Source of the DNA: Thermodesulfobacteriota bacterium
GTDB lineage: Bacteria > Desulfobacterota > Desulfobacteria > Desulfobacterales > SURF-7
Direction: 5' to 3'
DNA length: 64,000 nt
Assembly: GCA_049320885.1 (NCBI GenBank)
Contig: JBMORA010000035.1
Span: 32,001 to 96,000, forward strand
Under the pieces are notes generated by a model that saw nothing but the letters and a program-made list of their open reading frames with translations, was not told where the DNA came from and ran no database searches. Of this stretch, positions 29,244 to 42,615 are shown one piece after another (positions within the stretch are counted from its first letter, which is position 1; each line of letters opens with the position of its first letter). The position numbers were made by a program, and so were the translations under genes.

Positions 29244-31628
29244 ATGGATAAAAAAAAGCTGAGTGAACGCGACATCTGCACCAAATTCATCACCCCGGCT
29301 CTGGAACGCGCGGGTTGGGATATCAGCACCCAGGTTCGGGAAGAATTTCCCCTTACCAACGGGCGTATCATCGTGCGTGGCAAGCTGTATACCCGCGCCA
29401 AGCACAAGCGCGCCGATTATGTCCTGTTTTACAAGCCGAATATTCCCATTGCCATTATCGAAGCCAAGGACAACAACCACACGGTTGGCGATGGCATGCA
29501 ACAGGCCCTGGGCTATGCTGACATGCTGCAAGTGCCGTTTGTATTCAGCTCCAACGGCGATGGCTTTTTGTTTCACAACAGAATTGCCGCAGATGGCGTT
29601 ATCGAGCGTGAGCTCTCACTTAACGAATTTCCCTCTGTGGAAACATTATGGCAACTATGGGGGCAACATCGCGGGCTGAACGACCAGCAGAATGCGTTGG
29701 TCACGCAGGATTATTATAGCGACGTAAGCGGCAAGAACCCGCGCTATTACCAGTTATTGGCCATTAACAAAACCATTGAGGCAATCGCTCAGGGGAAAAA
29801 TCGTATTCTTCTGGTGATGGCAACCGGCACCGGCAAAACCTTCACCGCCTTTCAAATCATCTGGCGTTTATGGAAGTCCAGGGCAAAAAAACGAATCCTG
29901 TTTCTTGCCGACCGCAACATTTTGATCGACCAGACCATGACCAATGATTTCAAACCATTCGGTTCGGCCATGACCAAGATCCAGAAGCGGCAGACCAATA
30001 AGTCCTACGAGATTTACCTTTCCCTCTATCAGGCTGTTACCGGAAATGAGGAAGAGAAAAACATTTATAAGCAGTTCAGCCCCGATTTTTTCGATCTGAT
30101 CATTATTGATGAATGCCATCGGGGCAGTGCGGCCGCCGATTCGGCCTGGCGTGAAATCCTCGAATATTTCACCTCCGCCACCCAGATCGGTCTTACCGCC
30201 ACCCCCAAGGAGACCAAAGAAGTTTCCAATATCGATTACTTTGGCGACCCCATCTATACTTACAGTCTTCGGCAGGGAATCGACGACGGTTTCCTTGCCC
30301 CTTATAAGGTCGTGCGCATCGATTTCGACCGGGATTTGACCGGCTGGCGACCCGACAAGGGCATGATCGACAAGTACGGCAACGAAATCGAGGACCGCAT
30401 TTACAACCAAAAGGATTTCGACAAGACCCTGGTCCTTGAACAGCGCACCCAGTTGGTGGCCAAAAAGATCACCGAATTCCTCAGGCAGACCAACCGCTTC
30501 GACAAAGCCATCGTCTTTTGCGAAAACATCGACCATGCCGAGCGCATGCGCCAGGCCCTGGTCAATGAAAACGCCGACCTGGTGGCGCAAAACAGCAAAT
30601 ACGTCATGCGCATCACCGGCGACAACGAGGAAGGCAAAGCCGAGCTCGATAACTTCATTTTTCCGGAGAGTAAATACCCGGTTATTGCCACCACTTCCAA
30701 GCTGATGACCACCGGCGTGGATGCTCAGACCTGCAAACTCATCGTGCTCGACCAGCGCATTCAGTCCATGACCGAATTCAAGCAGATCATCGGGCGCGGC
30801 ACCCGCATCAATGAAGACTACGGCAAGTACTATTTCACCATCATTGACTTTAAAAAGGCCACCGAGTTGTTTGCCGACCCTGATTTCGACGGTGATCCGG
30901 TCCAGATCTACGAACCCAAGGGGGATGAATCACCGGTGCCGCCGGATATTCCCGGCGAGGCCGAAAGTGGCAGCGGCGTCACCTACCCGGAACCAGGAGG
31001 CGAGCAGGATTGGACCGGCGTCGCCGAACCCGGCCCAGAAGAGGAGGGCGACGGAACTCGCCGTTACGTCGTGGCCAATGTCGAGGTCAAGGTTGCCGCC
31101 GAGCGCGTCCAGTATTTCGACGCCAACGGTAAACTGATCACCGAATCCCTCAAGGACTACACCCGCAAGGCCCTGGCTAGGGAATACGCCTCCCTCGACG
31201 ATTTCCTCCGCCGCTGGACCAGCACCGAAAAGAAGCAGGCCATCATCGACGAACTCTCCGAACAGGGGGTGTTCTTCGATGCCCTTGCCGATGAGATCGG
31301 GCGGCAATCCGGCAAAGCATTCGATCCGTTCGATCTGGTCTGCCATGTCGCTTGGGATATGCCGCCTCTTACCCGCAAGGAACGGGCGGAACAGGTGAAG
31401 AAACGTAACTACTTCACCCAATACGGCGAGCAGGCCCGTCGCGTGCTGGAAGCGCTGCTCGACAAGTACGCCGATGAAGGCGTGGCCCCCATCGAAGAGA
31501 CGCAGATTCTCACCATTGCCCCTTTTACCAAATTCGGCACCCCGCTGGAAATTATCCGCGCCTTTGGGGGGCTGGATCAGTATCAGCAGGCTGTGCATGA
31601 GCTGGAGGATGCGCTTTATGCCGGATAA
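29244..31628 (+). CDS. hsdR: Type I restriction endonuclease subunit R (EcoAI/EcoEI-like)
   Basis: [36 protein letters not shown]. Confidence 0.95.
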
Positions 31629-32082
31629 ACAAACCTCACACGAAGGCACGAAAACACGAAGGGATAAAGAAGGGTTATCCAAGATCGTTGTGGATTGTGC
31701 ATACCGGATGCATGTTGAGATCGGGCCGGGGTTGCTCGAGTCTGTTTATGAGGCGGTACTGGAGAAACTGCTATTGGAGAAAGGTCTCAGGGTAAATCGA
31801 CAAAAGTCCATACCGATTGAGGTGATGGGTCTTTCCATCCATGAAGGATTCAGGGCTGATCTGATCGTGGAGGATCTTCTGCTGATTGAGCTTAAATCAG
31901 TAGAAAAACTCGCCCCGGTTCATTCCAAACAAGTCCTGACCTACCTTCGGCTTCTCAATCTGCCTCTCGGACTCCTCCTCAACTTCGGCGCAGCCACGTT
32001 CAAAGAAGGCTGCAAGCGCATCGTCAACGGCAAACAGGACTTCGTGTCTTCGTGCCTTCGTGTGAACCAAAAAGGATACTAA
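31618..32082 (+). CDS. GxxExxY family PD-(D/E)XK-like protein
   Basis: [35 protein letters not shown]. Confidence 0.92.
31636..32065. mobile_element. Inverted-repeat-bounded unit carrying GxxExxY
   Basis: TCACACGAAGGCACGAAAACACGAAG (31636-31661) is 25/26 identical to the reverse complement of 32040-32065. Confidence 0.65.
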
Positions 32083-33551: not shown

Positions 33552-34708
33552 GCGACGTGCAGTTGACAACTCCGGAATACCGCGACTGGCTGAAGGAGAT
33601 CAAGCAGCGATTGCGGCAGGCGCAGGTGAAGGCGGCGGTGCAGGTGAATACCGCCTTGCTGACCTTCTACTGGGAGCTGGGCGCGGACATTGTGGAGCGC
33701 CAGAAATCGGCTCTATGGGGCAGCGGATTTCTGAAACAGTTGAGCGCCGACCTGATGGCGGAGTTTCCGGACATGAAGGGGTTTTCGCGGCGGAACCTTG
33801 AACAGATTCGCCGCTGGTATCTGTTTTATGCCGAAGGGATTACAAATTGCGCAACAAGCTGTGGCACAATTGGGCAGCAAGCTGTTGTCCAATTACCGGA
33901 AAAGAGGGGAGAATCAATTGCGAAGCAGCCTGCTGCGCAATTGGCCGACAGTTCAGTTCCGTCACACCTCGTGGCCAAATTGGTTCAGATTCCCTGGTGG
34001 CATAATGTGGTGATTATCTCCAAATGCAAGGATGTGACCGAAGCGATTTACTATGTAAACAAGACCATCGATCATAACTGGAGCCGGAATGTCCTGACCC
34101 ACCAGATTGAGAGCGGTTTGTATGTGCGCGAGGGAAAGGCGGTCACCAATTTTGCACAGACCTTACCGGCTCCACAGTCGGATTTGGCGCAACAGTTGAT
34201 GAAAGATCCCTACAATTTTGATTTTTTAACGCTGACCAAAGACTACAACGAACGGGAGCTTGAAAAGGCGCTGACTGACCATATCACCAAATTTCTTTTA
34301 GAGCTGGGTGCCGGTTTCGCCTATGTGGGACGCCAAAAAGAGTTGCAGGTGGGTGAGCGGGATTTCTTCCTCGATTTGCTATTTTACCACACCAAACTTC
34401 ATTGCTATGTCGTCATTGAGCTCAAGACCGGCGAGTTTGAACCGGAGTATGCCGGTAAACTTAATTTTTATCTGAAGGCGGTGGATGAGCAGCTGCGCGG
34501 GGATCGGGATGAGCCGACCATTGGCATTCTGCTCTGCAAAACCCGAGATCGCGTCGTGGTGGAGTATGCGCTGAGTGACATTAGCAAACCCATGGGCGTT
34601 TCGGAATACCAGCTTACCCGCGCCCTGCCGGATAACCTGAAATCGAGCCTGCCCTCCATTGAGGAACTGGAAGCGGAGTTCGGCAACCCGGAGGGAGATG
34701 ATGAATAA
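33548..34708 (+). CDS. Second YhcG/DUF1016 nuclease, inside the hsd operon
   Basis: FYWELG, KDPYNFDFL, DLLFYH, IELK, GKLNFYL. Confidence 0.92.
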   Translation: MSDVQLTTPEYRDWLKEIKQRLRQAQVKAAVQVNTALLTFYWELGADIVERQKSALWGSGFLKQLSADLMAEFPDMKGFSRRNLEQIRRWYLFYAEGITNCATSCGTIGQQAVVQLPEKRGESIAKQPAAQLADSSVPSHLVAKLVQIPWWHNVVIISKCKDVTEAIYYVNKTIDHNWSRNVLTHQIESGLYVREGKAVTNFAQTLPAPQSDLAQQLMKDPYNFDFLTLTKDYNERELEKALTDHITKFLLELGAGFAYVGRQKELQVGERDFFLDLLFYHTKLHCYVVIELKTGEFEPEYAGKLNFYLKAVDEQLRGDRDEPTIGILLCKTRDRVVVEYALSDISKPMGVSEYQLTRALPDNLKSSLPSIEELEAEFGNPEGDDE

Positions 34709-34717
34709 CGGGATGGT

Positions 34718-34896
34718 CTCACACGAAGGCACGAAGACACGAAGTTTTGAAAACAGTCGTTATACCCGCGAAGGCGGGTACCCAGATTCGTGGCAACGAT
34801 TTATCCAACGGCTTGCTGCACTATTTCCAATTATTCAGACCGGGAGGGGGGTATGACCAGTTCGTCCTCCTTCGTGCCTTCGTGTCTTCGTGTGAG
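34718..34896. mobile_element. Gene-less (non-autonomous) copy of the CACGAAG inverted-repeat element, containing a REP-like arm
   Basis: CTCACACGAAGGCACGAAGACACGAAG (34718-34744) and CTTCGTGCCTTCGTGTCTTCGTGTGAG (34870-34896). Confidence 0.7.
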
Positions 34897-36895
34897 CGAT
34901 CTGCTGGAACAGCATTTCGACACCGCCTTTGCCGCGCCTGCCGGTATCGCCAAACTGCGCGAGTTGATCTTGACCCTCGCCATGCAGGGCAAGCTGGTGG
35001 AACAGGACCCGAACGACCCACCCGCCAGCGAGTTGCTGAAGGAGATCGAAGCCGAAAAACAGCAGCTTGTGAAAGCGGGCAAGATTAAAAAGCCCAAGCC
35101 GCTGCCGCCCATTAAGCCGGAGGAAGTGCCCTACGAACTGCCGGAGGGATGGGAGTGGGCGAGGCTCGGTGAAATAACTGAATACAACGGTCGAAAAAAT
35201 ATCTCGGGCGATGAGATAGCCCCCGATACATGGTTGCTTGATCTCGAAGACATTGAAAAGGGAACTTCTCGTATTCTGTTCCGAGCAAAGTTTTCAGAGC
35301 GCCAATCAAAATCTACGAAATCAACCTTTCAGAAAGGTGATGTGCTTTATGGCAAACTTCGTCCCTATCTCGACAAGGTTGTGGTAGCAGATGCTGATGG
35401 AGTTTGCACGACTGAGATTGTGCCCATCGTTCCGTTTAACGGAATACATTCTGAATTTCTCAGGTGGTTACTAAAGCGCCCTGCATTTATAACCCATGTT
35501 AACTCTCTCATGTATGGCGTCAAAATGCCCAGGCTTGGCACAGATGATGCTTTAACGAGTATTCACCCGCTTCCCCCCCTCCCCGAACAACACCGCATCG
35601 TCGCCCGCATCAACCAGTTGATGACCCGTTGTGATGAGTTGGAAAAGCTGCACAAACAGCGGGAGGAGAAGCGGCTGGCCGTCCACGCCGCCGCCATCAA
35701 GCAACTGCTCGACCCGCCGGACCTGTCTGCCGGCCAGGCAGGCGGCTCGGCCTGGGACTTTATCCAACAGCACTTCGACGACCTCTACACCGTCAAGGAA
35801 AACGTCGCCGAACTGCGCAAGGCCATCCTCCAACTCGCCGTAATGGGCCGCCTCGTTCCCCCTGCCTGCCGGCAGGCAGGCAAGACCCCAACGACCCTCC
35901 CACCACCAGAACCTGGATCATGGTGGGTGTACGTTATTGAGTGCGAAAATGGATCATTCTATAAAGGTTTTACAGAAGATCTTCCGCGTCGCTGGCGGCA
36001 ACATCTATCAGGTACTGCGAGCGAATGGACAAAAAAGCATCCACCCAAACAGGTTTACTACTGGGAAAAATGTTTTTCAAAAGAAGCAGCCATTAAGCGG
36101 GAAGACTATTTGAAATCAGGCTTTGGTCGAGAATGGTTCAAGCGCGAGGTGGTTGATAATCAAAAAGCATGGCAGACCGCCAGCGAACTGCTCAAAGAGA
36201 TCGAAGCCGAAAAACAGCGACTGATGAAGGCAGGTAAAATCAAGAAGCCCAAGCCCGTACCGCCCATCAAGCCGGAGGAAGTGCCCTACCAACTGCCGCA
36301 GGGCTGGGAGTGGGTGCGATTTGGAAAAGTTGCGAGCAACCGACTAGGAAAAATGCTCGATAAATCTAAGAATCGAGGTAACCCAAAACCATATTTGAGA
36401 AATACCAATGTTCAATGGCATCAGTTTGTTCTTGATGATGTCAAAGAGATGAAATTCGAAGATGAAGAGCTTGATGAATTTCGTGTACTTCCCGGTGACC
36501 TTCTAATATGCGAAGGTGGTGAACCCGGTCGCTGTGCAATATGGCGCGATTCAGAGGTAGAAATCTATTTCCAGAAAGCCATACATAGAGCGAGGCCGTT
36601 TTCGTGCGTTACTTCTGAGTATCTGCAAGTTTGCCTTACAAACGATGGGGGTAACGGTCAGTTGGAAAAGTATTTCACTGGGGCAACAATCAAGCATTTC
36701 CCTGGTGACAAGCTTAATGGGTATGTCATTCCTCTACCACCTCTTCCCGAACAACACCGCATCGTCGCCCGCATCGATCAGTTGATGGCCCTGTGCGACA
36801 CACTCGACCAGCAGATCGACGCTGCCACCGGCAAAAAGACCGAACTGCTGGACGCCGTGATGGCCCGCCTGTCGGCAGACACGGCCCAGGTATAA
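34853..36895 (+). CDS. hsdS: Type I R-M specificity subunit with an in-frame GIY-YIG insertion
   Basis: Two conserved repeats (ASELLKEIEAEK, PYELPxGWEWxR, PLPPLPEQHRIVARI) and two TRDs; insert WVYVIEC..SFYKG..RWRQH..EDYLKSGFGRE. Confidence 0.92.
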   Translation: MTSSSSFVPSCLRVSDLLEQHFDTAFAAPAGIAKLRELILTLAMQGKLVEQDPNDPPASELLKEIEAEKQQLVKAGKIKKPKPLPPIKPEEVPYELPEGWEWARLGEITEYNGRKNISGDEIAPDTWLLDLEDIEKGTSRILFRAKFSERQSKSTKSTFQKGDVLYGKLRPYLDKVVVADADGVCTTEIVPIVPFNGIHSEFLRWLLKRPAFITHVNSLMYGVKMPRLGTDDALTSIHPLPPLPEQHRIVARINQLMTRCDELEKLHKQREEKRLAVHAAAIKQLLDPPDLSAGQAGGSAWDFIQQHFDDLYTVKENVAELRKAILQLAVMGRLVPPACRQAGKTPTTLPPPEPGSWWVYVIECENGSFYKGFTEDLPRRWRQHLSGTASEWTKKHPPKQVYYWEKCFSKEAAIKREDYLKSGFGREWFKREVVDNQKAWQTASELLKEIEAEKQRLMKAGKIKKPKPVPPIKPEEVPYQLPQGWEWVRFGKVASNRLGKMLDKSKNRGNPKPYLRNTNVQWHQFVLDDVKEMKFEDEELDEFRVLPGDLLICEGGEPGRCAIWRDSEVEIYFQKAIHRARPFSCVTSEYLQVCLTNDGGNGQLEKYFTGATIKHFPGDKLNGYVIPLPPLPEQHRIVARIDQLMALCDTLDQQIDAATGKKTELLDAVMARLSADTAQV

Positions 36896-36990
36896 GGAGA
36901 TGCCATGCGCCTGACATCACTTTATATCGGCCAGTACAAGAACCTTCGGGATTTTTCTCTGAGGTTCGACCTGCCGGCCGGGCAGGCGGG
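35722..36990. repeat. Four copies of the 20-21 nt palindrome CCTGCCTGCCGGCAGGCAGG
   Basis: Copies at 35722-35742, 35861-35880 (perfect), 36864-36884 and 36970-36990. Confidence 0.85.
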
Positions 36991-37022
36991 CGGCAGCAAC
37001 TTTATCGATGTCTTTGTCGGCA
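36905..37022 (+). pseudogene. N-terminal stub of a restriction-associated AAA ATPase
   Basis: MRLTSLYIGQYKNLRDFSLRFD..GSNFIDVFVG after an AGGAG RBS; breaks at the start of Walker A. Confidence 0.65.
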
Positions 37023-37034
37023 ATACCGTCGGCC

Positions 37035-38466
37035 TGATGTGGTTTAATGAGAGCGGACACTGAGTCAAGCGTGGTTTTTTAATCGGCTTAGAAACATAGA
37101 CAAAACAGAAGGTTTTTGTTATCTGGCACGGCAACTAGCCGGAAAGGTTATTTGCGAGAATGGGCTATAGGTGCTCGTCGGAGCAAATAAACTTTCCGGC
37201 GGGTCCCAGGATTCGGCTTGGATAGCGGATATGTTTCGGGAGCTATTACGCAGACGAGGTGTTCAATGGGTGAAAAGAAGCAGCGAAAAGATTACACGGA
37301 TGAATTTAAACTGGATGCCGTCAAGCTAGTTATCGAACAAGGGTACTCCACCCCTGAGGTTGGCCGGCGGCTGGGGATCAATCATACCAACGTCTCAAGA
37401 TGGGTTCGGGAATATCATGCAAAGATAGGTGTCCCTTCCAAAAGTTCAGGTGCTGTCCAGGAACTGGAGGAGGAGGTAAAACGCCTCAGAAAAGAAAACA
37501 AACGCCTTTTGATGGAGCGAGAAATCTTAAAAAAGGCGGCGGCCTTCTTTGCGAACGAATCGAACTGAGGTTCGATTTTATCCGGCAGCAAATGAAGGCC
37601 TATCCCGTAACCGTCTTATGTTCGGTGATGCGGGTTAGCCGGGGTGGGTTCTATGGCTATCTGAAACGATTCAATGCTGGGAAGAATCGTCCAGAAGAGA
37701 CCGAATTGGGGAAGCGAATCAAAGAAATATTCAACGATCACAAAAACTGCTACGGATCCCGACGGATCGCAAGGCAATTAAGGGATGAAGGCCAGCCGGT
37801 GGGCCGATATAAAGTGCGACGGATCATGCGCCAGTTGTGGGGCTGAAGGCAAAAACTCCCAAGCGGTTCAAGCTGACGACCGACAGCCGACATTCGTTCC
37901 CGGTGGCGCCCAATACCCTGAATCGGAAATTCACGGTTGATGCTCCGAACAAGGTCTGGACGGCGGATATCACCTATGTATGGACCTTTGAAGGTTGGTT
38001 ATACCTGGCGGTTGTCATGGACCTGTATTCCCGCCGGATTGTCGGGTGGGCCATGAGTGAAAGAATGCAGAAGCAGCTTGTGCTGGATGCCCTGGCCATG
38101 GCGTATTGGCAGCGGAAGCCCTCAAAGGGTCTTTTGCATCATTCGGATCGCGGAAGTCAGTATGCCTGCCATGAATACAGGAAGCGGCTTAAAGGCTATG
38201 GCATGGAGGCCAGCATGAGCAGAAAGGGAAACTGCTGGGATAATTCACCAATGGAACGCTTTTTCCGCTCCTTGAAATCAGAACGGTTGACCGCTTGCCG
38301 TTTTGTGTCACGGAATGAAGCAAAAATGGAAATACTGGACTATATTACATTCTATAACAGCATTCGGCTTCATTCGACATTGGGGTACGTATCTCCGATG
38401 GCTTATGAGAAAAAACAGTACTTAAAGGTGGCTTGATTTTGTGTCCGTTTTTCCTTGACCATTACA
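37035..38466 (+). mobile_element. IS3-family insertion sequence, 1432 bp
   Basis: TG...CA ends, 36-bp imperfect IRs sharing CGGACAC...TCAAGC, GCC target duplication (37032-37034 and 38467-38469). Confidence 0.92.
37266..38436 (+). pseudogene. IS3 transposase orfA/orfB with an extra frameshift near 37837
   Basis: HTH OrfA, A6G slippery site at about 37529-37535, WTADIT, HSDRGSQY, DNSPMERFF; OrfB is split over two frames. Confidence 0.85.
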
Positions 38467-38622
38467 GCCTGGTTGTTTTTGGAGTGAAGGACTCGGGGCT
38501 TGAGCAGATCGTCGCGGCTGATCCGCATCAGTTCCGGCTCAATATGGGGGGCGTGACCGAGAACCGGAAAAATTCATACCAGCAGGCCCGGGAATATTTC
38601 TACCAGTTGATGAACCGCATCC
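38467..38622 (+). pseudogene. NERD-domain fragment (copy 1, interrupted by IS3)
   Basis: Near-identical to the corresponding segments starting at 39665 and 45345. Confidence 0.8.
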
Positions 38623-38760
38623 ACAATCACAAACCGAATCAGAGTCAGACTTACCCGCAATGCTCGGGTCCGTGGAATTATGGAGGCCGTGACGAATGCA
38701 TGATACGACCAAGCCATTGATGGTTAGCGAGGATAGTGTTTCATATGGGGGGGAAAAGCC

Positions 38761-39348
38761 ATGATGACCCTTCGGCTTTTCTCCGGGAAATTTGAATCCG
38801 TGCCGGCCGCCACATCCTGGTACTTGGCAGACCTTGGCGAGGCGCGTGGCAAACAGGAATTGTTTACCCGTCAATCGCCGCAGCGTCTCAAGGCTTTGCG
38901 GGAGCACGCCCTCATTGAAAGCGCCGTATCATCCAACCGGATCGAGGGCGTGGAGGTCGAGCAATCCCGAATCGCCACCATCGTCTTCGGCCAGCCGCTT
39001 CTGCGGGACCGTGATGAGGAGGAAGTCCGGGGATACCGGCAGGCCCTGACCTGGATTCATGAGCAAGGGGCGAAAATCCCGATATCGGAAGAGACCGTTT
39101 TACAGCTCCATCATATGACACGCGGGGAAATCTGGGATGCCGGAAAATACAAAAATAAAGACGGCGACATTATCGAAAAGTTTCCGGATGGCAGGTCGCG
39201 GGTCCGCTTCAAAACCGTTCCGGCGAAAGACACGCCGAGTTTCATGAAGGATCTGGTCGAGTTGTACGACGATGCCATCGAGGATCGCAAAGTCCCGCCG
39301 CTTGTCCTTTTAGCCGCCCTCAACCTCGATTGGGGCGGCAAGTGTTGA
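38761..39348 (+). pseudogene. Fic family protein, N-terminal fragment
   Basis: ESAVSSNRIEG, LQLH, AGKYK; ends just before where the HPFxDGNGR motif is expected. Confidence 0.75.
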
Positions 39349-39495
39349 AGATGCAATCCGAAAAAGGGAAGTCGTGATCCCTGTGGCGAAATAATGCATC
39401 AGAATGGATGGCAGACGGGCCGGGATAACAGGTCAACTTTATAGAAAATGGAACTAAAACAGGGACTGATTTGTATGTGCTATTGAGGTGCGCGT

Positions 39496-39984
39496 ATGGC
39501 CCAAATGATTCCGCCTGATGTTGAGACCTTCACAACCGATGGCGAAAGGCAGTTCTACCGATTTTTGGAAGCGGTCGCCAAGCCGGATTCGAATTTTATC
39601 GCCTGGTATACGCCGAACATTGACGGGAAGGAGCCGGATTTCGTTCTTTTCGGCAATACTGTCGGCCTGGTTGTTTTTGAAGTGAAGGACTGGGGGCTTG
39701 AGCAGATCGTCGCGGCTGATAAGCATCAGTTCCGGCTCATTATGGGGGGCGTGACCGAGAACCGAAAAAATCCTTACCGGCAGGCCCGGGAATATTTTTA
39801 CCAGCTGATGAACCGCATCGAGCAGGACGGGCGGCTGGTATCGCAGGAGCCGGGACATCATGGCAAGCTCCGGATACCGATCACCTGCGGCGTCATCTTT
39901 CCCAACATCAATAAATACGAGTATTCCCAAAAAGGCTTGGACATAAAAATTGCCCATTATTCACTATTCGAATCAGGAGAATAG
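39496..39984 (+). pseudogene. NERD-domain fragment (copy 2)
   Basis: First ~149 aa nearly identical to 45177-47048, then diverges. Confidence 0.85.
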
Positions 39985-41472
39985 ATGATGGATCGCTTTG
40001 ATCTTCTCAGTTTTGATGAAGGGAAAACCCTGGAATTCAAGCGGGACCTCTCGTCACCCAAAGCATTCTTGAAGACACTGGTGGCTTTTGCTAACACGGC
40101 GGGCGGTAAAATCATCATCGGCGTGGAGGACAAGACGCGCCGGCCTGTTGGTGTGCAGCATCCCCTGGATGAAGAGGAAAAATTGTGTAATCTGATCGCC
40201 GATTCCATTAGTCCACGCCTGGTGCCCAATGTGGAAATGGTAACGGTGGACAACAAGACCCTCCTGATCGCCGAAGTCTTCTTAAGCAATTCACGGCCCC
40301 ATTGGCTCAAAGCGGAAGGACCGGAAAACGGCGTCTATGTCCGACTCGGTTCCACCAACCGCCAGGCGGACCGGGAACTCATCGCGGAGTTGCGTCGGTC
40401 GGTGGAAGGGGTTGCTTTTGATGAAATGCCGTTGCCGGAAATGTCCGTTGACGATCTGGATTTGGCCGCCGCCCGGAAAGTATTCCAGGGGCGCCGCAAA
40501 CTGGATAAGCAAGAATTGCTGACACTGAAATTGCTGCGTAAAGACCAGGGGAAACTAGTCCCGACCAAGGGCGCTGTGCTTTTATTCGGAAAAGAGCGCG
40601 TTTTCCATTTCCCGGATTCCTGGGTGTAGTGCGGCCGCTTTATCGGCCGGGACAAAACTGATATCTTCGATCATATTGATTTGGACGAGCCCTTGCCGCA
40701 ACTGGTGGAGAGCATCCTGTTGTTTCTGAAAAAGCATGCCATGCGCGGTGCCGATTTCTCCGAAATTCGGCGGAAGGATGTCTGGAGTATCCCCCTCGGG
40801 ATTCTGCGGGAGGCGGTGATCAATGCCCTGGTGCATGCTGACTATTCCCAGCGCGGCGCTCCGATCCGCATCGCCTTTTACGATGACCGCATTGAAATCG
40901 AAAACCCGGGGATCCTGATGCCGGGCATGACCATCGAGGATATGAAGCAGGGGGTCTCCAAGATCCGCAATCCGGTGATCGCCAGGGTTTTCCGAGAACT
41001 GAAACTCATTGAACAATGGGGCAGCGGCGTGCGCAATATCCTCCGGGTCGCCCAGGAACAAAACCTGCCGGAGCCCATTTACGAAGAAATCGGCATGCGG
41101 CTTCGTTTGAGCGTGTTCCTTGCAGAACCGCAGGTTCTTTCCAAAATTCAGGCCGGGTCCAGGTCCATAACTGTCCAAAAGAGTCTTGAGGAAACCAAGG
41201 GGGGGGTGCCAAATCAAGAGCAGTGGGCTAAACGGTGGGGTGAAAAGTGGGGTAAAAAGTGGGGTGAAACCATGATGGCCAAGCGGCTTACGATTGCTCG
41301 CGCCATGCAGCGCAATCCGCGCATTTCAACCTCGGAGCTGGCCGCACACTTGGATATGGGAACTACTGGTGTGGAGAAGCATTTAAAAATATTGCGTGAA
41401 AATGGATGTATCCGACGGATCGGTCCAGCCAAGGGCGGTCGCTGGGAAGTGTTGGAAGACGGGGATGAATAA
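39985..41472 (+). pseudogene. AlbA_2 + HATPase_c_4 + HTH protein with a single in-frame TAG at 40627
   Basis: LEFKR, VAFANTAGG, REAVINALVHADY, IENPG, RNPVIA; both ORF halves are in the same frame. Confidence 0.85.
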
Positions 41473-41974
41473 AGAGACTACCGAGCTAAAGCGGTTTATC
41501 CACAGATTACGCGATTTCTTGCGATTTCTTGTCGGACCAAGTAGAACCATTGACTATCAATTGGTTAGGATAAAAATCAGACCATTTTGGGGTCTTAGAA
41601 CGATGTTTTTGGGGTCGAAAAGGGCGGTTTAAGGAACGCGAGGGCTGAAACTGTGTTTGGCGAAAATGTAACGATCAGCTAAAACGCCTGAAATAGGACG
41701 GGGATGCCTTGCTGTTCGACTTGAAATATAGCGTTGGACCGCTGAAAAATACGGAATCAGGTTCCATGGATTATCAGGCGCTCAAAAAACTGATACAGGA
41801 AGTCAAAACCGACCGGCTGGAAATTGCCAGTCCCGGCGGTCTTCGGTTCAGGTCTACCGAAGACTTACCCGCAATGCTCGGGTCCGTGGAATTATGGAGG
41901 CCGTGACGAATGCACGATACGAACAAGCCATTGATGGTTAGCGAGGATAGTGTTTCATATGGGGGGGGAAAGCC

Positions 41975-42615
41975 ATGATGACCCTTCGGCTTTTCTCCGG
42001 GAAATTTGAATCCGTGCCGGCCGCCACATCCTGGTACTTGGCAGACCTTGGCGAGGCGCGTGGCAAACAGGAATTGTTTACCCGTCAATCGCCGAAGCGT
42101 CTCAAGGCTTTGCGGGAGCACGCCCTCATTGAAAGCGCCGTATCATCCAACCGGATCGAGGGCGTGGAGGTCGAGCAATCCCGAATCGCCACCATCGTCT
42201 TCGGCCAGCCGCTTCTGCGGGACCGTGATGAGGAGGAAGTCCGGGGATACCGGCAGGCCCTGACCTGGATTCATGAGCAAGGGGCGAAAATCCCGATATC
42301 GGAAGAGACCGTTTTACAGCTCCATCATATATTCTTTCCATCATCAAGATGGCCTATCGGGAATTCGAGCAAGGCCTCGGCCAACTCCAGAGCCCCAAGG
42401 GTGAGAAAACGAGTCTCGTTCTTCATGCTATCGACAGTGCTCTCGGTTCTTTCAGCGTGACGGAAATTCAGAACAAGTGCCCGAACGTCAGCGTGGATAT
42501 GGTCCGCCGGGTGCTGAAGAACCTGCGGGCAAAAAATCAGGTTGAGTGCCTTGGCCGCGGCCAGAATGCCCGTTGGCAAAAAGCCGCCAAGTGGCAATTG
42601 GGTAATGTCGATTGA
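41975..42615 (+). pseudogene. Fic family protein copy 2, internally deleted (N-terminus + C-terminal HTH)
   Basis: About 470-bp direct repeat of 38649-39116, then a jump to AYREFE...VECLGRGQNARW in another frame. Confidence 0.75.

Follow-up and report, generated by a model that had tools for sequence, protein, structure and literature searches.

Why would a single restriction locus carry four similar palindromes of 20–21 nt, clustered around a GIY-YIG nuclease domain? The window analyzed here, a stretch of 64,000 nucleotides from a Thermodesulfobacteriota bacterium, contains a type I restriction locus in which hsdS carries three of these palindromes and the fourth lies in what remains of the 5′ end of an AAA ATPase gene, so that four copies fall within 1.27 kb (Table 1). 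The neighboring hsdR, hsdM, and yhcG genes carry none. The initial annotation had proposed that all four are minimal insertions, possibly deposited in cis by the nuclease.

Table 1. Features of the hsdS locus, numbered by position in the window
Feature	Position	Strand	Remarks
hsdS host gene	34853–36895	+	680 aa, with two TRDs; frame open from 34790
GIY-YIG domain in HsdS	central conserved region		Pfam Methylase_S (two) and GIY-YIG (PF01541)
Short form 1	35722–35742	.	21 nt; extra loop base; GA^CGG site
Short form 2	35861–35880	.	perfect palindrome of 20 nt; CG between the left and right 9-bp arms
Spacer	35881–35901	+	matches host QDPND-xP codons, out of host frame
GIY-YIG core insert	35902–36178	+	277 nt; junctions uncertain by a few bases
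Short form 3	36864–36884	.	21 nt; last codons of hsdS
Short form 4	36970–36990	.	21 nt; GA^CGG site; within the AAA ATPase 5′ remnant
Truncated AAA ATPase gene	36905–37063	+	host of copy 4; 535-aa open frame in ortholog L376

A sequence check placed the four palindromes at the positions listed, each followed by C as had been described, and a second detector returned exactly these four in the 64 kb. None of 100 shuffles of the window contained a match to the 20-mer with three or fewer mismatches. Short form 2 was confirmed as a perfect palindrome and is the sole exact copy in the 5.6-Mb genome, in which no genome-wide spread was found; a single strict match was obtained, and the 20-mer had three matches within two errors and 17 within three. 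The possibility of an assembly artefact, which had been raised for positions 35861–35905, was ruled out by clean gaps in an ortholog (L376, below) and by independent contigs of run X1, possibly the source sample of the assembly, which span all four palindromes with no differences.

The empty sites that homolog alignment was expected to reveal were indeed observed. Ortholog L376, from the complete genome G302 of the same order, is about 90% identical to the window allele (248/273 and 210/236 identical positions in the flanks) and displays 21-nt gaps at sites 1, 3, and 4; at site 2 it has neither the 20-mer nor the 277-nt core. No strict short form was present in G302. In addition, L006 and a related X1 allele are empty at site 2, with a net difference of 297 nt that agrees with the frame-restoring sum of 20 + 277 nt in the initial annotation. 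Site 3 is likewise unoccupied in a different X1 allele. Since L376 is empty for all five inserts, the inserts postdate the split from this allele; the alternative, loss of all five from the L376 allele, is less parsimonious. In a structure model of HsdS (mean pLDDT 82.6), the GIY-YIG region folds as a separate domain, with copy 1 in a low-confidence loop, copy 2 in a loop, and copy 3 in the terminal helix. At the position of window site 1, L006 and L026 have in-frame inserts of other kinds that look like repeats, suggesting that this HsdS loop is a hot spot for several element families.

Comparison with related loci showed that the palindrome corresponds to the two inverted 9-bp terminal arms of a nuclease-bearing unit without the gene between them. 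We searched with the nuclease domain alone, omitting the palindrome, and 113 of the 150 top representatives had at least 40 extra residues on both sides of the core. Both arm peptides were present in 77 of the 150, in which LPA opens the domain and RQAG, or a sequence close to it, closes it; these are the translations of the left and right halves of the palindrome. The other representatives had the right arm only (21), the left arm only (5), the arrangement of the window (10), a short form just upstream (12), or no arm peptide at all (25).

At the DNA level, we examined 89 loci, nine from genomes and the others the best 80 of 265 confirmed matches in metagenomes. Both 9-bp arms flanked the core in 73 of them, and 64 of these 73 units were exactly 282 bp, or 94 codons, long; 13 loci had no detectable arm and three lacked the anchor motif. 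Because the arm filter demanded arms in frame with the core, a length that is a multiple of three is not evidence in itself, but the fixed length and the open host frame are independent of the filter. The host frame was open on both sides of 69 of the 73 units, and an ATG was found within the first 12 codons in only one of the 73. The units occupied 66 distinct insertion sites in 41 amino-acid contexts, with LeuRS, ArgRS, AlaRS, PheT, UvrB, RNase R, MsrB, DHFR, HsdR, HsdM, and SNF2 helicases among the hosts in the 33 ORFs scanned; hsdS also hosts the unit. Since the unit lacks both a start and a stop and lies in frame in many unrelated genes, the nuclease appears to be made as a passenger domain of host proteins. 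In one variant (L206, genome G354), the core has its own start codon and the right arm is still fused to the hsdS tail.

Insertion was favored at GA^YGR, with 0.5–1.1 bits per position from −2 to +2. The GA^CGG context noted in the window is thus present, but as a target preference of the whole family rather than a local feature. This preference is weak, is weaker or different for the short forms in genome G079, and may partly reflect survival in Asp-Gly turns. A flanking direct repeat was absent (0 nt) at 50 of the 66 sites and never exceeded 3 nt; the clean 21-nt gaps in L376 likewise show no target-site duplication.

The arms and the core differ in how they are conserved. Third codon positions were 97–100% conserved in the arms versus 48% in the core, indicating that the arms serve as DNA or RNA signals. 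In the minimum-energy fold, the two arms paired in only half of the units (32 of 64). Purifying selection acts on the core: none of 62 cores contained a stop, and Y12, Y22, R32, and E69, which we take to be the catalytic residues of GIY-YIG enzymes, were conserved at 98–100%. A structure model of the core was closest to UPF0213 (1zg2, E = 8e-5), with a weaker match to Slx1. Among the Pfam families shown inside the unit, GIY-YIG was the only one, with neither a DDE nor a Y1/HUH transposase, and no NCBIfam model for the core was found. The closest units at different sites were 78% identical and two units in one genome were 63% identical, so that no recent jump, that is, near-identical units at different sites, was caught among the 66 sites. 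A plasmid search returned 17 records with distant GIY-YIG domains only, none covering 80% of the query, and the full unit was not found in viral contigs.

Gene-less forms of 19–45 bp share the arms and enclose a self-folding interior of variable length, and some of them start and finish exactly as the full unit does. The 20-mer of the window is the minimal form, supporting its description as a minimal non-coding element. A strict pattern for the short forms matched 135 of 401 genomes of the phylum, with up to 127 copies, compared with 0–2 for the reversed control; one variant occurred in 28 viral-contig stretches, and in G079 short forms were nested inside one another. When copy lengths were tabulated modulo 3 (42 nested copies dropped; copies not independent), 28 of 44 copies of length 3n lay inside ORFs versus 10 of 74 copies of other lengths, in line with the proposed selection for frame-preserving copies. 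In a strand test of wobble orientation, GA^ was found in 23 and ^TC in one of 86 copies, a result that is no more than suggestive, because 14 belong to copies that lie nested within other repeats of a single genome. Copies 1 and 3 of the window are closer to a widespread variant than to the local 20-mer and thus may not derive from it; copy 3 is the common T5/A12 variant, reversed in orientation and with one arm longer by a base. In genome G442 (31 copies; L325–L341), most of the copies fetched are embedded in larger repeats, two or three in number, whose flanks are identical; these copies probably hitch-hiked.

The short forms were associated with one clade of the nuclease. A palindrome was found within 1 kb at 15 of 16 close loci, and no copy within two errors was detected at 35 distant GIY-YIG loci. 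At distances of up to 1.2 kb from cores of the window type, 31 kb of sequence contained 13 copies, versus one in 153 kb farther out (the obligate copy was left out, and a few copies in hsdS repeat a single event). Around full units, there were 19 copies in 141 kb nearby versus two in 141 kb at a distance of 5–10 kb, and 29 distant GIY-YIG control loci yielded none in 465 kb. In the complete genome G144, half of the short forms (six of 12) are no more than 7 kb away from its unit. At least five short forms were present in six of seven other genomes with the clade versus 38 of 393 without it, a count of rich genomes made by hand in which kin are not independent.

Conversely, short forms also occur genome-wide elsewhere, often with no linked nuclease detected. 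A match to the clade at 1e-15 was absent from 38 of the 44 rich genomes, many of which are fragmented assemblies, and three rich genomes had no match even with an alignment as the query. We also considered a standalone, tRNA-linked GIY-YIG gene as a general driver, but this candidate proved weak: it was detected in 10 of 44 rich and 49 of 357 other genomes (p = 0.12, not significant), added just eight rich genomes and left 30 of the 44 with neither linked clade, and a strict short form was present at one of 30 such loci. Thus, the proposed tie to GIY-YIG genes held as a link to one clade with local clustering around the gene, and not as a genome-wide rule. The nuclease probably deposits the short forms, and strictly cis action cannot be the whole story given the genome-wide short forms for which a linked nuclease was often not detected.

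Several tRNA-linked loci carry palindromes of their own. In G079 (L201:1445–1810), a standalone GIY-YIG gene lies between duplicated tRNA-Asn sequences, with a 19-nt form inserted in the upstream copy, so that at least two GIY-YIG clades are tied to the arms. The same arrangement is seen at L346 (genome G254), where near-strict, arm-type palindromes occupy the upstream tRNA-Asn copy. At L360, L365, L370, and L208, a tRNA-linked standalone GIY-YIG gene lies beside another palindrome family with CCGCC...GGCGG ends; the linked tRNA is tRNA-Ser/Arg in L360, L365, and L370. On another contig of the window's own genome (L002), a second small standalone GIY-YIG gene is preceded by unrelated hairpin repeats.

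The window core retains the family-invariant residues and has neither a start nor a stop of its own, and intact arms around it are absent: no recognizable right arm follows, and the 3′ part of the spacer with the next codons may represent a decayed left arm, judging from the resemblance of LPPPEPG to LPAPRPG. In a quick tree of 76 columns, 24 of 25 window-type rows formed one branch (SH-aLRT 94) beside, not inside, the arm-bearing branch; the 25th row (P0014) has its palindrome at another site. In the window-type branch, the 20-mer lies 14–21 nt upstream of the hsdS target. Named loci of this type came from Spirochaetota, Verrucomicrobiota, Pseudomonadota, Bacteroidota, and Fibrobacterota, and the cassette occupies the N-terminal, central, and C-terminal conserved repeats of HsdS. 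Rubritalea tangerina, which can be cultured, is among the carriers of the window type.

Conservation in homologs of the peptide PACRQAG, which the 20-mer encodes, had been named as a sign against an insertion. The peptide did occupy this position in 119 of 120 longer homologs, in a search whose query included the motif, and in 10 of 150 representatives of the domain-only search. However, third positions in the palindrome were conserved at 9–10 of 10 versus 5–6 of 10 in the upstream host codons, in a comparison spanning loci of 35–61% GC, which rules out conservation at the protein level. Because the conservation is at the DNA level and none of the orthologs examined that lack the nuclease has the peptide, PACRQAG supports rather than weakens the element reading. 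Several alleles retain agreement between the out-of-frame spacer and the local host motif, and in the L029 allele a spacer change is silent only in the translated frame.

Taken with the L376 alignment, these comparisons show that, as far as sequence can tell, the window hsdS gained a sister-lineage cassette and three 21-mers after the split from its ~90%-identical ortholog. The view of four alike micro-insertions therefore stands for the three newer copies, which lie within 1.1 kb, but not for the 20-nt copy, which is an inherited part of the cassette rather than a fresh local insertion. The cassette probably moves between hsdS alleles or repeats by recombination at conserved flanks, and it may have kept the 20-mer as a functional recognition site.

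We conclude that the palindromes are probably non-autonomous members of a small mobile-element family defined by two 9-bp inverted arms, and we consider it likely that the nuclease mobilizes anything bounded by these arms. In the mechanism that we propose, the Slx1/YhbQ-like nuclease would recognize the arm–arm stem in single-stranded or extruded DNA and nick at the foot of the stem and at a GA^YG-like target. Host repair and ligation would then paste or copy the stem-loop in, with blunt insertion via ligation or template-switch repair, and the action would be biased toward DNA near the nuclease gene. Stem-foot nicking with blunt insertion would account for the free interiors, the wobble-tolerant arms, and the nesting. 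This specific nicking chemistry is offered tentatively and is rather doubtful in its details; we know of no strand-transfer step in hydrolytic GIY-YIG enzymes. It is quite possible, if slightly short of an even chance, that the family represents a new class of prokaryotic transposon, in which a start-less 282-bp GIY-YIG unit lives as a parasite in the reading frames of its hosts, translated as a passenger domain that is not spliced out. Together with the ligase of the host, it would cut and paste any stem-loop with its 9-bp arms, down to a 20-bp palindrome, precisely and without target duplication. If so, the unit would be among the smallest autonomous elements known and GIY-YIG would act as a transposase.

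Other explanations of the arms were weighed against the same data. The arms might be moved by another enzyme, either an unrecognized transposase or host repair, with the GIY-YIG gene as cargo that enjoys homing-like drive by cutting empty alleles. The many rich genomes with neither linked clade (30/44), the two clades (embedded and tRNA-Asn-linked) beside the same arms, and the repeated occupation of one hsdS site, which fits homing, all point in this direction. Allele-to-allele homing, however, cannot explain the 41 unrelated contexts of the full unit, the short forms thin out with distance from the nuclease, and no other gene was seen between the arms in the loci examined. We regard a different mobilizer as unlikely. 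Less probable still is a nuclease that is blind to the arms and nicks near its own gene, where repair captures hairpins from a cellular or incoming pool. Such capture would fit the three new window copies, which differ from one another and from the local 20-mer and of which two carry the T5 variant, as well as the short forms in viral contigs, but it leaves unexplained the exact arm ends of the 282-bp unit and the near-complete DNA conservation of the arms.

Two further possibilities appear very improbable, to a similar degree. In one, the arms are splice or excision signals, and the unit is removed from RNA, or from DNA in some cells, to restore the host protein. Inserts of 94 residues in essential enzymes, arms still conserved in long-resident units, and window-type spacers that in some cases read host QDPNDEP in a shifted frame would all make sense under removal. 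Yet removal would make it needless for frameshifting short forms to avoid ORFs, as they do (10/74 inside); the L029 spacer change is silent only in the translated frame, ten loci gave no Rfam match, and no intein domain was among the Pfam families shown. In the other, the local cluster results from co-transfer out of a palindrome-rich donor, with no activity in cis. In favor of this reading, the phylum includes possible rich donors, and mobility is common to restriction loci, but four copies in 1.27 kb far exceed the density of the richest genome, about one copy per 20 kb, the hsdR, hsdM, and yhcG genes next door are free of copies, and clustering within 1.2 kb recurs in 13 loci of several phyla.

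We compared the preferred reading, a nuclease that mobilizes arm-bounded DNA, with known systems. Insertion sequences with MITEs comprise an autonomous unit with terminal inverted repeats and internally deleted copies with the same ends. The present family likewise has terminal inverted repeats common to full and short forms; unlike them, it has no DDE transposase, no target-site duplication, and no translation start of its own, and its unit is 282 bp long. IS200/IS605 elements make no target duplication and use a short target motif, to which the duplication-free insertion at a short asymmetric GA^YGR target is similar, but the enzyme here is a GIY-YIG nuclease and not the Y1 tyrosine transposase of IS200/IS605 and REPIN/RAYT. 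Inteins with homing endonucleases place a nuclease in frame inside essential proteins at one allelic site. The unit, in contrast, occupies many unrelated sites and has neither a splicing domain nor Cys/Ser...Asn ends, reading LPAP...RQA(G) instead. It also differs from group I and group II introns in being fully coding, with no Rfam matches in 10 loci.

The small dispersed repeats (SDR) of Nostocaceae, reportedly described by Elhai in 2008, are said to be very short. To our knowledge, neither these repeats nor the Rickettsia palindromic elements have a partner nuclease. The SDR work is cited in PMC5861425, and PMC3733652 mentions the Rickettsia elements. Both resemble the short forms as tiny or palindromic in-frame protein inserts; they differ in being lineage-restricted and unrelated in sequence. 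REPIN/RAYT systems (Bertels and Rainey 2011, PMC3116915; Di Nocera 2013, PMC3733652; accessible sections of both) are similar in their gene-less palindromes beside a small nuclease gene and in nesting. According to the same sections, RAYTs are not self-mobile and REPs are mostly extragenic, whereas the nuclease unit described here is itself present at dozens of coding sites; the accessible sections of PMC3733652 do not mention GIY.

Like our family, the Ssn/SRM system, in the available part of Chenal et al. 2025 (PMC11893778), combines a small GIY-YIG domain with a hairpin repeat that has many gene-less copies, and its authors liken NTS-ssnA-NTS to an insertion sequence. The hairpin-directed cutting of single-stranded DNA by Ssn is the best biochemical model for the unit. 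However, no NTS-like motif was found within 300 nt of any of the 73 units, at up to five substitutions from the NTS consensus. As far as the available part of that paper describes them, Ssn ends are whole hairpins and Ssn genes are free-standing, with 2% of NTS in genes, whereas the unit ends in half-stems and lies start-less inside ORFs. The family thus works most like Ssn/SRM and REPIN/RAYT, yet fails the tested defining features of both. Two hairpins in the window, at 34758–34785 (+) and 476–503 (−), are four substitutions from the NTS consensus.

A GIY-YIG insertion in the HsdR protein MCA0838 was reported as a unique case (Dunin-Horkawicz 2006, PMC1564403); in the accessible part of that paper, its DNA ends, its family, and the short forms go unremarked. 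As far as we found, this kind of selfish DNA is apparently unpublished, with no description in the open literature, most subscription papers lying outside our coverage. If the enzyme turns out to be a hairpin nickase like Ssn and insertion is driven by something else, the system would be filed with the Ssn kind. How non-coding repeats of 20–40 bp such as REPs, SDRs, and RPEs spread is an old open question, and with a minimal element, its full partner, an empty ortholog, and a target preference in hand, it can be tested with a 94-residue protein. If the preferred reading is true, GIY-YIG would join the DNA-mobilizing enzymes. The family would account for stray peptides and "GIY-YIG fusion" annotations in many proteins, tRNA synthetases included, would provide a route for whole domains into essential proteins, and, as a scarless insertion system with 9-bp arms, could be of interest as a tool.

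The surroundings of hsdS contain further repeats. Inverted 27-nt arms at 34718–34744 and 34870–34896 delimit a cassette without genes at the 5′ end of hsdS; in contigs of run X2, these arms enclose different interiors, and a GxxExxY/PDDEXK_3 gene at 31474–32082 appears to share their arm word. The yhcG/DUF1016 gene contains an in-frame inverted repeat (33845–33872 and 33915–33942). In the region 36905–42460, the AAA gene is cut after 40 codons and joined to a fragment that is repeated near 39647, and an element labeled by eye as IS3-like lies 3′ of the remnant and fragment, at about 37064–38470. The same region contains a duplication of 155 nt (38467/39665), as well as partial Fic-like genes at 38761 and 41975.
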